This document shows positions 24,832 to 58,004 of a stretch of 64,000 bases of DNA, one piece after another. Source of the DNA: a bacterium (lineage in GTDB: Bacteria > Orphanbacterota > Orphanbacteria > Orphanbacterales > Orphanbacteraceae). The stretch is from NCBI GenBank assembly GCA_025782575.1, contig JALGYY010000048.1, positions 13,182 to 77,181 of the forward strand, given 5' to 3'. Below the pieces are notes generated by a model. It made no database searches. It had not been told where the DNA came from and worked only from the letters and a program-made list of their open reading frames with translations. The stretch's first letter is position 1. Each line of letters starts with the position of its first letter. The translations under genes were made by a program, and so were the position numbers.

Positions 24832-25755
24832 CTAGCGGAACAGCTCCTTCAAGGACCCCCAGGTACTTGATTCGGTTGCTGTCGGCTCACAGTCCGTGCC
24901 GAGTATCCCATTGTTGAAGTCATCCAAAATCTCTGCCGTCGCACTCGTAGTTGAAGCCAATACGGAACCGCCACCCACCGGCGGAATCACCAAAGCCCCG
25001 ATCAAAGCATCGGCGTCAGCAACAGCAGTCCCAAGCGGCGCGGGGACCGCGCCCAGCGCGAGGTTTAACTTCGCCGGGATGAGCTGGTGAGCCAGAATGA
25101 GGAGGCCGTTCCCCCCCGCCGGCTGATTCAGAATGCTGAGCAGCTCTGCCTGATCATAATTGACAGATCCCAGCGTCAGATTGAAAAGTGGCCAGTCTGC
25201 CGGGTGATTCTTCCAGAAGCCCTGTGTAAAATGGCACTCATCTCCGAAGGTAGTTGTGCTCAACAGGTTCGCGCTATTCACACTCTGCTCCCACGCACCT
25301 CCGTCTCCATTAGCGAAGACACAAAATACATAGCTCGTGTTTGTCTCGAGCTCATTCCAATCGGTTGCCACTACCCCGGTTTCATCGAACAGATCACCCA
25401 TCTGAATGTTAATCGACTCGTTCGATCCCAGTTGGAAGCTAGCCGGCATTCCTGCGTAGGTATTTAGAGTCGGGGTGCCTGTAAAATTAGCCTCACTCAC
25501 TGCAGATGTCAACGTGGATGGCCAGGTGCTACCGTTGAGGACAAAAGTGGCTTCCGTCACCCACCATATTGTAAAACCGGCCGGCGCACCGGTGGCCCCT
25601 GCAGTTATGGTCATTTCGAGCTTAGCGTGCCCGGCTTCCATGAAAGTCAGAGTGGGTGAGTCGAGTTGGGTCGCGAGCGCCCTCTGCGAAAACCCGGAAA
25701 TTACCAGGCAAAGCAAGATTAGCGTGATTGTGGATTTTGATAGCCATTGGTTCAC
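24832..25755 (-). CDS. Secreted protein (Fn3-like domain plus TQGFWKNH domain) with C-terminal WG..K..FR tag
   Basis: RBS AGGAGG before GTG 25755; signal peptide ending ALA; ends PTATESSTWGSLKELFR. Confidence 0.8.
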   Translation of the reverse strand: MNQWLSKSTITLILLCLVISGFSQRALATQLDSPTLTFMEAGHAKLEMTITAGATGAPAGFTIWWVTEATFVLNGSTWPSTLTSAVSEANFTGTPTLNTYAGMPASFQLGSNESINIQMGDLFDETGVVATDWNELETNTSYVFCVFANGDGGAWEQSVNSANLLSTTTFGDECHFTQGFWKNHPADWPLFNLTLGSVNYDQAELLSILNQPAGGNGLLILAHQLIPAKLNLALGAVPAPLGTAVADADALIGALVIPPVGGGSVLASTTSATAEILDDFNNGILGTDCEPTATESSTWGSLKELFR

Positions 25756-26204
25756 CTGACTCTCCTCCTGTTTCTCGTCCTGTATAGGGTAGACGGCATT
25801 AAGCTGTTCGTTATGTTCAACCAAGATGAGTCGTGAATAAAAGCTTCTTTTACAACTGCGTACTATATCACGCCACTTGCCATATTTCAACCACTAACTA
25901 TGTCAAATACATGGAGAAACGCCAGCAAGGATCTCAGCTCCTCCCGGGAAATCGACTGTGTAATTATTCCAGGAGATACCTGAGAACTGTATCTCCGGCG
26001 GTCCTTAGACCGAACAACCAGGCCCCCAAGGTCCGCTTTTGCTTCTCCGGACCGTTCCCGGCTGCCTACATCGGTTTTCAGGGTTCGCCAATATAGTAGA
26101 GTACTGGATTGATAATCATCTAAATAATAAAATTTCGTCAGATTGGCTCAGAATGTCATCCAGTTTCAAGGATCGCTGGCCTTATTGCCGGCCCAGGAGG
26201 GGAA

Positions 26205-26998
26205 ATGAAAAAGTTGCTATCGGTTGCCGCATTCACCTGTCTGACCATTGCCTGCTTTCAACTCGCACTGATCGGCACGGCTAGGGCTGACGTGGTCATC
26301 ATGATTATCGACGATTTTCAAGCGGGGACTATCAGCTCGGTCGGGAGGGTACCTCGACTCCCTACACAGTGTCCGACACACAATTCGACGGAACGGGAAC
26401 ACACATCATTGGCGGACAGCGCGACGTCACCTTTCAGAAGATCACCGGTTCCTCCACGCAACCCTATGCCAACGTTTTGTCCACCGTCACATATTTAGGA
26501 TACACGGGCATTAGCACTTACAACTCCTTCTTCAATTGCAATGCTGTTTGGACGACGACGTGTGGCCTCGCGGGAGATCTCAACGCGGATCTTACGGCAG
26601 GTGGCACGGCTGATCGCATAAGCCTGGTGATAGACGGGGATCAGGATGATAGCGTTCCGGTGCGGCCGATACCTCTTACAATTACAGTGATCAGCGGAAC
26701 AGGTACCGCCGCGGTCACGAAGGATCTGGTGAACTACGGGATCCATTCTTTCCTGTATACCGAGTTTGCATGTGTGGATTTCGCCGACGTTGATCGCCTG
26801 GTCTTCGAAATCGAACAGGATAGTCAGATCAACGACGCGATCGATTTCGCCTTGTTACTTACACGGTCGATTCACGTCCACCTTACCCGACATGGCCTAT
26901 CGGCAATCGAGACGATTCCTGCTGGAAGACTTCCTATATTATGCCGAGTCGCGGACTTAGTGGAGCAGCATAGTCCGGTCACGCAGAGATCTTTTTGA
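26205..26998 (+). pseudogene. Frameshifted secreted beta-sandwich protein (IDDF...GGQRD type)
   Basis: RBS AGGAGG and signal peptide in one frame; the body (EGTSTPYTVSDTQ...IIGGQRDV) is in another frame, with the shift near 26335-26345. C-terminus appears degenerate. Confidence 0.6.
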
Positions 26999-27058
26999 CT
27001 GTCTTATCGCCCGATCATTCTTGACACCTTATCAAAGTGAGTTTACCATAGACATATC

Positions 27059-56479: not shown

Positions 56480-56484
56480 GTCAC

Positions 56485-56537
56485 CACCTCGTGGCAAAAC
56501 ACTTATCTGCGCCGGGATGTTTCACTAGTATACCACA
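56485..56537 (-). promoter_or_regulatory. Conserved promoter/leader, copy 2 (TGTGGTATACT...CCCGGCGCA...CGAGGT)
   Basis: Shared with 37581-37636 and 58010-58063. Confidence 0.6.
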
Positions 56538-56566
56538 AGACGTGAAGCCTCCGGGACCTATACAAT

Positions 56567-58004
56567 CTACCGAAACATCGCCTTCACAGCTCCCCAGCTA
56601 GTCGGCTCCACTGCCGTTGTCGCACCGCACACCACATCGAGCGCACCGATCAAACCACACGCAGCACCGTCGGGGTGGTTACCGGGAGCGCATGGGGAGT
56701 TGGCGTGGAGGGTGAAGTCGCCGTTGGGCGCATCACAGAAGAGCGGGTCAGAGGAGAAGTTGCCATTCAATCCTGCCTGGCCGGCTACCCCAGCAATCCA
56801 ATCACCTCCTGCGTTTCCGTACATGTTACTGCATTCCAAGATCGGTGATCCGCCGAAGAACTTCCGGAAACCAACACCCACGAGGCTTGATGCGATTATC
56901 GTATTCCTAAGAATTGGGGTGGAATTGAGATAGCTGTAGATCCCTCCCGCACTATAGTATGCATCCTTCAAACTCGGGCGAAGCCTGATAGCACGATATG
57001 CCACCCCCGTTGGTTCCCTGGTTTCCAGTCAGGACACAATTAAGAAACCGAGGCGTGCTATTCCTGGCGCACCGAATGCCGCCTCCAAGACCCGAGGAGT
57101 TCGAATCGAGAGTACACTCGATGTACTCTCCACCGACGTCGGCAGCGATCTCTATCCCACCGCCCTTCGTCAGTGCAATATTAAGCCGAAACATACATCG
57201 CTCTACGAGCGGATTTCCTTCCTCAACGTAGAGGCCACCACCAATTTCATCGGCTTGGTTTTCAATGAACTCGCAGTCCTCTATTCTCGAATCAAAGCCC
57301 CAGAGGACAATTCCGCCGCCTCCAACCCTCGCACTGTTCGTAGAGAGTGTGCAGCGCTGGACATTAATAGCAGAGCGAAAGGTGGCGATGCCTCCGCCAA
57401 CCCTGGATCTATTGCCGGCAAAATAGCAATCTGCTATCAGTGTCCCCGAACCGTCACTGTTGGAGATCCCGCCCCCATGATCGAATGCGACATTGTTTTC
57501 AAAATAGCAGAAAATGATCTCCGGCGACGAGCCCGCGCAGAAAATGGCGCCGCCGTCGTCACCTGACCGACAGCTCACAAATCGGCAGTCCGTAATTCTC
57601 GGCGAGGAGTTCGAACAATAGATAGCACCGCCCAAGTCTTCATTAGAGTTTGAGCTATTACCGTCTCTTAATGTGAATCCCTCTAATCGACTATCGCCGG
57701 TTTCTCCTTGGTCGAATATGAAGCAACGGCCTACATTCTCTGCATCCACAACCGTAAGAACAGCCCCCGCAAATGACCGGACAACGATTTCTTTTCCGTG
57801 GAACCTGATGTCTCGATTTCCCGGACCTGAGAATATGCCCGGATGGGCGAGGACTGTATCGCCGTCTGACGCGAGCAAGATCGCATCCTGCAAATTCGGT
57901 GCATCACCTGTGCTGTCTGGCATTACATTCCAAGTGGTTGTATTCCCGCTGACAGACGTGATCGCCAATGTAATAAGGGCAAGCAATGTGGAATGCAAAC
58001 GCAT
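56567..58004 (-). pseudogene. Parallel beta-helix secreted protein with WG..K..FR tag, frame-broken
   Basis: Signal peptide, GDAPNLQDAI and GGG repeats. Frame break near 56955-56963. Tail NGNFSSDPLFCD...TAVEPTSWGAVKAMFR. Confidence 0.8.

Follow-up and report, generated by a model that had tools for sequence, protein, structure and literature searches.

A short, strongly conserved tail on exported proteins of many folds, possibly an envelope-tethering tag of T9SS-bearing Eisenbacteria-like bacteria

Five copies of a WG..K..FR tail abutting the stop codon were located on the minus strand of the stretch of DNA analysed here (64,000 nt, referred to as the window), with stops at 24832, 36377, 52568, 53121 and 56567, exactly as an earlier sequence-only reading had claimed. 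The corresponding DNA pattern was matched 5 times in the window, whereas 100 shuffles that preserved dinucleotides gave a mean of 0.00. The genes and features concerned are listed below.

24832..24882, minus strand: tag, 16 codons directly followed by the stop, of a signal-peptide protein with 307 aa; orthologues of other phyla end at the last Cys of the domain, just ahead of this extension
24832..25755, minus strand: the tagged gene itself, of a family without Pfam or NCBIfam match; start picked by a signal-peptide heuristic
36377..36427, minus strand: tag of beta-helix gene B, directly before the stop
36377..37575, minus strand: beta-helix gene B, whose sequence runs over two frames, traced by tblastn with intact paralogues
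38564..38608, minus strand: isolated stretch coding for a tag-like peptide (14 codons and a stop), with other stop codons immediately upstream; a probable relic
45827..50902, minus strand: secreted protein of 1691 aa with the same T9SS-type CTD at its end as the paralogue at 53774..56497, the alternative signal inside the window
52568..52618, minus strand: tag of a cohesin-like paralogue, directly before the stop
52568..53179, minus strand: tagged gene for a protein of about 203 aa from the cohesin-like family with 16 copies; start chosen by the heuristic, fold from the model of a paralogue
53121..53171, minus strand: tag of a second cohesin-like paralogue, directly before the stop
53121..53705, minus strand: tagged gene for a further cohesin-like protein of the family, of about 194 aa, its start again chosen by the heuristic
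53774..56497, minus strand: double beta-helix paralogue, 907 aa, with a T9SS-type CTD (about 53774-54028) in place of the tag; Beta_helix, DUF5123, FlgD_ig (37.2 bits) and TIGR04183 (26.3 bits)
56567..56617, minus strand: tag of beta-helix gene A, directly before the stop
56567..58004, minus strand: beta-helix gene A in two frames (tblastn), the upstream ORF carrying the signal peptide and the downstream ORF the tag

The tails terminate proteins of three unrelated folds, as had been proposed: two beta-helix proteins, two cohesin-like proteins (the 16-member family, assigned from an AlphaFold model) and one protein of the family without Pfam match. The description of all five as signal-peptide proteins was right about the tails, but the genes at 36377 and 56567 each span two frames, so that their signal peptide and tag lie on different ORFs; for gene B, intact paralogues matched frame -2 (residues 1-296) and frame -1 (residues 333-401) by tblastn. 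The split of genes A and B is attributable to a frameshift, a pseudogene or an assembly error. The replacement of the tag by a FlgD_ig/Por_Secre_tail CTD in the paralogue at 53774-56497 was found as claimed.

Throughout the source genome (G000), the motif T-(A/S/G)-(T/V/I)-E-x-S-S-W-G-x-(V/I)-K-x-(L/M)-F-R ends 58 ORFs, and the wider consensus of about 16 residues is T-small-(T/V/I)-E-x-(S/T)-(S/T)-W-G-x-(V/I/L)-K-x-(L/M/I)-(F/Y)-R. A six-frame scan of the genome with a loose regular expression gave 53 matches, of which 43 abut a stop and another 4 have 1-2 extra residues in between; among ORFs of at least 60 aa a strict form of the motif occurred 51 times, 50 of them no more than 4 residues from the end. 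Trp and Lys were invariant in 47/47 tags and Arg was present in 46/47; the Lys stood at position -5 in all 47 and was never Arg, and a helix N-cap residue (S, T, N, D or G) directly preceded Trp in 45/47. A DNA repeat or mobile cassette was rejected because synonymous positions of the tag codons vary freely and all three stop codons are in use; the tag is under protein-level selection. No model of Pfam or NCBIfam matched the tags of six tagged proteins (E ≤ 1) or eight isolated tails (E ≤ 10), and literature searches on the motif itself, on the T9SS of candidate phyla, on PorU2/PorV2 and on sorting signals of Eisenbacteria/Krumholzibacteria gave no description of the tag, in agreement with the earlier remark that no functional characterisation was known. 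The tail holds no transmembrane segment, as had also been noted, and the protein stops 9 residues after Trp.

The 58 tagged ORFs belong to about 25 BLAST-unrelated families, and the domains among them include Beta_helix/NosD, SnoaL/DUF4440, LTD, cupredoxin and X25. A signal peptide was predicted by our own hydrophobicity heuristic in 50/53 tagged proteins, compared with 241/593 random long ORFs and 108/564 in a second control, and some tag carriers are lipoproteins. The median ORF length was 246 aa for tagged and 720 aa for CTD-bearing ORFs. The largest tagged family (16 members in G000) is cohesin-like, the AlphaFold model of one paralogue matching cohesins. In the AlphaFold2 model of a cohesin-like member, the domain reached pLDDT >90 whereas the last 19 residues stayed at about 50-56, with a short unpacked helix of low confidence at 173-180, which places the tag outside the fold. 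In the family of the 24832 gene, an extension of about 20 aa was present in 53/79 loci, and the remaining 26/79, from other phyla, stop at the terminal Cys of the domain, exactly where the tag begins. The tag follows the final structural residue of small domains of many folds that are exported by Sec, and its earlier description as a modular and strongly conserved addition to proteins with signal peptides stands. Typical periplasmic carriers, a cupredoxin among them, are tagged. One tandem array of tagged genes adjoins a Tol-Pal-like operon, as judged by eye.

The tag was found in 10/10 genomes of the source phylum, and other lineages carry a ...YR variant in 35-43 copies per genome. Its core is the same across phyla, and the retention of W-G and of Lys (never Arg) over this range points to sequence-specific recognition. 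Among 1.84 billion proteins, 1725 cluster representatives carried the tag at E ≤ 1e-3; the best 150 of these lean to beta-helix proteins (75/105) because the search profile included their cap, and do not represent the global cargo repertoire. SprA was detected in 10/10 genomes of this phylum and also in G068, G087, G092, G161, G212, G315, G378 and G398, with a weak match in G088. Among the genomes searched, the tag occurred only in T9SS-bearing ones, but many SprA-positive genomes are without it, so that the co-occurrence is confounded by phylogeny.

With regard to position, the best 150 representatives comprised 116 ending exactly after Arg, 29 with 1-5 residues after it, and 10 that were genuinely multi-copy. 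Tandem copies, up to 4-5, were seen in one protein family, and in a SnoaL-like subfamily of it 10/12 members have a conserved copy right behind the signal peptide, at the site occupied by the lipobox Cys in relatives, and two cohesin-like homologues have an intact tag inserted in a loop, their own C-terminal copy being degenerate with K changed to R. The tag is usually, though not necessarily, at the extreme C-terminus. The expected restriction to C-termini of signal-peptide proteins thus describes the source genome well (50/51 near the end, 50/53 with signal peptides) but does not extend to the two protein families from which the evidence for position tolerance comes. Since copies occur in these other positions and homology to the CTD was not detected (see below), a motif for docking or tethering that tolerates various positions appears a better description of the tag than a translocation signal, and its designation as a minimal C-terminal export signal did not find support in that form.

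The tag and the large T9SS CTD are mutually exclusive: of 28 paralogues of tagged cores that are themselves untagged, 12 have a T9SS-type CTD at their end, and none of 167 CTD ORFs has the tag, which bears out the proposed swap among paralogues. Both are preceded by a T-small-(V/I/T)-acidic motif, in line with the similar linkers reported earlier. T[GSAD][IVMT][EDAG] lies 16-22 aa ahead of the CTD start in 37/109 cases (1.3 expected) and exactly 7 aa ahead of the tag Trp in 26/55 (0.5 expected), and in G092, which belongs to another phylum, T-G-V-(A/D/E) precedes CTDs and (S/T)-(P/A)-V-E precedes tags. A hydrophobic-hydrophobic-(R/K) end is common to tags (45/57) and CTDs (141/167) and was found in 40/2616 other long ORFs. 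The T9SS core of G000 includes PorU (558 bits) and a PorV-family protein (180.7 bits).

These common features are the basis of the main rival explanation, in which the tag would be an ultra-short T9SS signal that keeps the PorU cleavage-site motif (T / small-V/I-acidic) and the motif-E-like basic...hydrophobic-hydrophobic-Arg end of the type-A CTD; small proteins would pass SprA, and PorV and PorU would then cleave the tag and attach the cargo to the surface. The presence of SprA in every tag-rich genome tested, and of PorU and PorV in G000, is consistent with it, as is the division between small tagged and large CTD-bearing ORFs. PMC11969387 describes CTDs of Prevotella intermedia that are naturally short (43-55 aa) and have PT/GI as their cleavage consensus, and cites work in which the last 22 residues of Hbp35 alone were required; both would favour a short signal. 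However, comparison of the tail profile with the genome's own CTD profile by hhalign gave a probability of 0.1%, by which the tag as a truncated CTD was rejected, and TIGR04183 and PF18962 matched neither six tagged proteins (E ≤ 1) nor eight isolated tails (E ≤ 10). The tail is predicted to be helical or disordered, with no beta-strands; the tandem, N-terminal and loop copies, and the 29/150 with residues after Arg, are at odds with a signal that needs a free C-terminus. In addition, some carriers are lipoproteins, the Pro at +1 in most G092 tags makes cleavage there improbable, and the co-occurrence with SprA is subject to the phylogenetic confounding described above. A T9SS signal is thus regarded as a serious but unlikely explanation.

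Several candidates for a partner of the tag were examined. A second PorU-like paralogue of G000 (C46, 1397 aa), considered as a tag-specific sortase, had strong orthologues only in its own phylum, G009 and G092; tag-rich G087 (86 bits) and G068 (48 bits) were without a close one and tag-free G059 and G074 scored higher, and owing to this uneven occurrence it was rejected as a general partner. It also fell under the NCBIfam PorU2 cut-off (111 versus 450 bits). Expansion of the PorV family gave no separation: five genomes with the tag had 7-13 copies, and five SprA-positive genomes lacking it had 5-21. In the profiling of the tag against SprA, PorV and PorU suggested earlier, SprA was present in the tag-rich genomes tested; PorV copy number and the second PorU-like paralogue did not discriminate. 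The cohesin-like family was present in 9/101 genomes, all of one family of genomes, and is therefore not the general receptor. Comparison of gene neighbours in G000, G092 and Eisenbacteria-labelled loci showed recurrence only of sulfatase-like and epimerase-like genes. Co-folding of PorV (residues 24-322) with a tagged cohesin-like protein (residues 21-184) gave scores of 0.00 and 0.01, which are no answer either way.

The explanation preferred here, tentatively and at somewhat less than an even chance, is that the tag is a portable envelope-tethering peptide of about 16 residues, read by a dedicated putative partner, in T9SS-bearing Eisenbacteria-like bacteria of the FCB group. After Sec export, the S/T-capped W-G-x-V-K-x-L-F-R segment, a short helix predicted with low confidence on a flexible linker, would dock non-covalently on a conserved envelope component, likelier a protein than bare lipid, and would keep small proteins of the periplasm or the surface tethered. 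In this way the tag would do the job of the lipid anchor found in homologues, extra copies would add avidity, and it would serve as a sorting or retention address and not as the translocation signal itself. Against such tethering, PorV copy number, the PorU-like paralogue, the cohesin-like family and the gene neighbours yielded no partner; the 50/51 G000 motifs near the end and the 116/150 ending after Arg would also fit a true C-terminal signal, and simple docking leaves the features common to the tag and T9SS CTDs unexplained.

The low-molecular-weight penicillin-binding protein PBP5 of E. coli has a C-terminal amphipathic membrane anchor, and the tag might in the same manner bind lipid directly as an amphipathic helix, fixing proteins of the periplasm to one leaflet of a membrane with no protein receptor involved. 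The spacing of W, V, L and F at i, i+3, i+6 and i+7, the N-cap residue with the predicted short helix, and the N-terminal copy in place of the lipobox would agree with lipid binding, and tandem copies would add avidity. However, the helical hydrophobic moment of the tag (0.61) was not above that of shuffles of the same residues (1/47 below 5%), nine residues are very short for a lipid anchor, and W-G and Lys are invariant across phyla whereas lipid-binding helices are normally degenerate. This explanation appears quite improbable.

Braun's lipoprotein (Lpp) is linked to peptidoglycan through its C-terminal Lys. By analogy, the tag might be a substrate for covalent chemistry or processing, with the invariant Lys cross-linked to peptidoglycan or another polymer, or the tag might be a recognition site for a periplasmic protease; we consider this very improbable. 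The Lys that is never replaced by Arg would suit such a role, K-x-L-(Y/F)-R has the same residue types as the end of Lpp, a C-terminal tag on a lipoprotein would link the membrane to the wall, and the tandem genes beside the Tol-Pal-like operon might be viewed in this light. Unlike Lpp, the tag ends in Arg (46/47) and has its Lys at -5; no candidate enzyme was found, and Pfam, NCBIfam and the literature searched held no precedent for the motif.

Among known systems, the tripartite sorting signals (LPXTG/sortase, PEP-CTERM/exosortase, GlyGly-CTERM/rhombosortase and MYXO-CTERM) resemble the tag as short, lineage-restricted signatures on many unrelated exported proteins in tens of copies per genome, but the tag is soluble, stops where the motif stops, and has neither a transmembrane stretch nor a basic cluster. 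Like the PBP5/PBP6 anchors, it is a short C-terminal addition, predicted to be helical and flexibly linked, by which a soluble periplasmic domain could be kept at a membrane; those anchors, however, are about 18-20 aa long with no motif common to families and phyla, whereas W, G, K and R of the tag are nearly invariant and its amphipathicity is unexceptional. The dockerin-cohesin system is likewise portable on many catalytic or binding domains, and the largest tagged family is cohesin-like, but dockerins (PF00404) are Ca-binding domains of about 60-70 aa with a duplicated F-hand, and the tag is too short and without Pfam match. The T9SS type-A CTD (TIGR04183/PF18962; FlgD_ig-like) shares with the tag its usual C-terminal place on Sec-exported proteins, modularity across folds, the preceding T-small-V/I-acidic motif, the hydrophobic-hydrophobic-Arg end and the alternation in paralogues. 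Unlike that CTD (43-100 residues; the short ones of PMC11969387 having 43-55 aa), the tag has 16 residues, without beta-sandwich, B or D motifs, or HMM or profile similarity, and may be tandem, N-terminal or in a loop, and also on lipoproteins.

More broadly, it is conceivable, though on balance unlikely, that the tag labels a previously unrecognised sorting or tethering system of Eisenbacteria-like FCB phyla, and would be the first bacterial envelope-sorting signal in the form of a soluble peptide of about 16 residues without a membrane span or folded domain. A dedicated receptor would read it at either terminus or in tandem, perhaps loading small proteins onto T9SS-anchored surface scaffolds or exporting them piggyback.

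The tag is present on roughly 1% of the proteins of this organism, and several uncultured phyla from soil and sediment have similar numbers of tagged proteins. If it were a 16-residue T9SS signal, it would be by far the shortest natural one (compared with 43 aa for the shortest in PMC11969387) and useful as a minimal secretion tag. If it is a sorting or tethering address, it marks the proteins that stay at the envelope in these lineages, would allow thousands of 'hypothetical' exported proteins to be annotated cheaply from sequence (1725 representatives pass E ≤ 1e-3), and points to a corresponding recognition machinery.

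A motif search of the window confirmed that all five tails (5/5, all on the minus strand) end in W-G-x-x-K-x-x-F-R with an immediate stop, and a back-translated DNA pattern of the motif gave 5 matches in the window versus a mean of 0.00, never one, in 100 dinucleotide-preserving shuffles. The tag stops, the split tagged genes and a tag-like fragment are as follows.

24832, 36377, 52568, 53121 and 56567, minus strand: stops of the five tags
58004-56567, minus strand: tagged beta-helix gene, split over two frames relative to intact paralogues
37575-36377, minus strand: tagged beta-helix gene, split over two frames relative to intact paralogues
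38564-38608, minus strand: 14-codon orphan coding fragment resembling the tag, ending W-G-G-L-K-S-F-F-K and stop

Three intact tagged genes lie in the window, two encoding ~200-aa paralogues of a 16-member family and the third a protein of 307 aa from a different family. The intact paralogues with which both split beta-helix genes were compared lie on other contigs of the same genome, and the splits reflect either two decaying paralogues (pseudogenes) or indel errors in the assembly. The statement in the sequence-only reading that five signal-peptide proteins end in the tag thus holds for the three intact genes, but for the two beta-helix genes it requires read-through of the frameshift. The fragment at 38564-38608 is probably a relic; stop codons lie immediately before it, and no gene body could be recognised ahead of it.

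A six-frame regular-expression search of the genome holding the window (4.88 Mb, 49 contigs) gave 53 matches, 43 directly before a stop and 4 with 1-2 extra residues, the other 6 being mostly noise; an HMM built from the tails placed the tag no more than 4 residues from the end of 58 ORFs. Among ORFs of at least 60 aa, 51 carried the strict motif, 50 of them terminally. The only internal strict match falls in an ORF of 1075 aa (C13:430160-433387, minus strand), within a low-complexity linker; by eye, the N-terminus of this ORF looks anti-sigma-like and its C-terminal half vWA-type. The consensus was T(-16)-A/S/G-T/V/I-E-x-S/T-S/T-W(-9)-G-x-V/I-K(-5)-x-L/M-F-R(-1), W and K being invariant in 47/47 tails and R present in 46/47. 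The tag is conserved at the protein level: synonymous codons vary freely within it, with four Gly codons, five Arg codons and each of the three stop codons represented, so selection acts on the peptide, and a DNA repeat is ruled out. Its carriers are exported, 50/53 tagged ORFs passing a crude signal-peptide test versus 241/593 and 108/564 control ORFs, and a few have a lipobox. After removal of the tails, the tagged proteins formed 29 BLAST groups, or ~25 unrelated families once 4 mere fragments were subtracted; Pfam searches with the 29 representatives identified Beta_helix/DUF5123/NosD, SnoaL/DUF4440, LTD, cupredoxin and X25 domains, and most representatives had no Pfam match.

In the GTDB phylum, the tag was detected in all 10 species genomes, with 12-48 pattern matches each versus 0-2 for a reversed-pattern control. 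When F or Y was permitted before Arg, three genomes of other families (G068, G087 and G092) carried 35-43 copies, mostly with Y-R ends; the stricter F-R pattern, applied to a 401-genome panel, was found in 11/391 outside genomes, clustered in few families, the control giving 0 in all 401. Tagged ORFs outside the phylum were again signal-peptide proteins of diverse folds. Relatives of the 307-aa protein (stop at 24832) bear a ~20-aa extension ending in the tag at 53 of 79 loci, labelled Candidatus Eisenbacteria, Krumholzibacteriia, Latescibacteria, Gemmatimonadota or 'bacterium'; the other 26, labelled Verrucomicrobiota/Udaeobacter, Bacteroidota genera, Acidobacteriota and others, stop at the terminal Cys of the domain or a few residues beyond. 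A 93-tail profile retrieved 1725 cluster representatives at E<=1e-3 among 1.84 billion proteins; in the best 150 of these, a list biased towards beta-helix proteins, the last tag copy was exactly C-terminal in 116 and within 5 residues of the end in 145. A lone carrier, a ~131-aa signal-peptide protein ending in T-W-G-S-I-K-A-(M/L)-F-R and matching no Pfam or NCBIfam model, was observed at L029 (genome G011) and L030 (G025), and by pattern also in G065, G080 and G091, one per otherwise tag-free genome; SprA is present in all five. That such genomes have a single conserved carrier suggests that the tag may have a reader beyond the tag-rich lineages as well.

The tag is a real, abundant, multi-phylum peptide on exported proteins. 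A match to an already characterised signal was sought and none was found: Pfam and NCBIfam models matched neither the tag in six tagged proteins (E<=1) nor eight isolated tails (E<=10), and full-text literature searches, both by motif and on sorting signals of the phyla concerned, returned nothing relevant.

The genome holding the window encodes the T9SS components SprA and PorU (558 bits), an adjoining PorV-family protein and a second PorU-like paralogue, and ~167 of its ORFs end in an FlgD_ig-type T9SS CTD. The proposal that the tag is a modular sorting signal interchangeable with this CTD was supported by its spread over ~25 families, by large CTD-ending proteins making up 12/28 untagged paralogues of tagged cores, and by the exclusivity of the two, 0/167 CTD ORFs being tagged. 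The last two observations also speak for a link between the tag and type IX secretion, as do median ORF lengths of 246 aa (tagged) and 720 aa (CTD) and the occurrence of SprA in every tag-rich genome tested. Further points of likeness are T-[GSAD]-[IVMT]-[EDAG], found exactly 7 aa ahead of the tag's W in 26/55 cases (0.5 expected) and 16-22 aa ahead of the CTD start in 37/109 (1.3 expected), and a hydrophobic-hydrophobic-(R/K) end in 45/57 tags, 141/167 CTDs and 40/2616 other ORFs. In G092, from another phylum, (S/T)-(P/A)-V-E precedes 30 tags and T-G-V-(A/D/E) ~10/17 CTDs; this pattern resembles the PT/GI consensus, with its conserved +2 Ile, reported for PorU cleavage in Prevotella (PMC11969387). 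However, tag and CTD have no profile similarity, the modelled tail is predicted to lack beta structure, the would-be +1 site is Pro in most G092 tags, and many SprA-positive genomes have no tag, so that the co-occurrence of tag and T9SS may be purely phylogenetic. On balance we consider an ultra-short T9SS signal unlikely. The second PorU-like protein, a C25 peptidase (L140, C46:193192-197385), carries its own CTD; its scores, 271 bits against PorU and 111 bits against the NCBIfam 'PorU2' model, are both below cut-off. Judged from coordinates, tagged genes in several genomes appear to be only a few kb away from the orthologue of this peptidase.

The largest tagged family (16 copies, ~185 aa) has members at C21:223192-226221 (five tandem genes) and at 52568-53705 in the window (two genes), and was found in 9/101 genomes, all belonging to the window's own family of genomes. 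Its AlphaFold2 model is a cohesin-like beta-sandwich (mean pLDDT 87.5; Foldseek E 1e-8, TM up to 0.79) in which the last 19 residues form a short unpacked helix at pLDDT ~50-56, which places the tag, in the predicted structure, as an appendage outside any fold rather than a component of one. Dockerin_1 matched two large CTD proteins marginally (23.9 and 22.8 bits), and a cohesin-dockerin-like surface assembly is possible. Directly downstream of the tandem array, C21:226366-230785 resembles a Tol-Pal operon, judged by eye from C-terminal sequences only.

The tag also tolerates other positions, although the examples are limited to two families and the motif is nearly always terminal in the genome holding the window. 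At the C-terminus of SnoaL-like lipoproteins (P0148, P0212, P0222, P0210), the tag is repeated in tandem, in 2 to 4-5 copies. In 10/12 members of one SnoaL-like subfamily, the signal peptide is followed immediately by a well-conserved copy, at the position of the lipobox Cys in relatives, and there is an additional, often less well kept, C-terminal copy; the remaining 2, both lipoproteins with tandem domains, have one internal and one terminal copy, and a similar internal copy lies at a domain junction in the window's genome and in G009. In the distant cohesin-like homologues P0146 and P0147, a ~30-residue surface-loop insertion holds an intact copy (alignment A4, columns ~131-160), and the C-terminal copies are degenerate, Lys or Trp being lost. 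Such tandem, N-terminal, internal and loop copies are unlike a signal needing a free C-terminus and fit a docking motif; the description as a minimal C-terminal export signal was accordingly too specific.

We tentatively favour a portable peptide that tethers or sorts its carriers and is recognised by a dedicated partner in the envelope. The tag would dock non-covalently, and its carriers would be retained at the envelope. The partner would be a protein rather than a lipid, given the invariance of W-G and K, the lack of any K-to-R replacement and the unremarkable amphipathicity. A lipid-binding helix is improbable, and a site of covalent attachment or processing at the invariant Lys very improbable. 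Five routes did not find the partner: PorV co-folding gave no answer, gene-neighbour analysis was empty, the PorU-like paralogue was an inconsistent correlate across genomes, PorV copy number did not discriminate, and the cohesin-like family was too narrowly distributed. The tag would belong with the modular envelope-sorting tags, and the machinery that reads the tag could be found.
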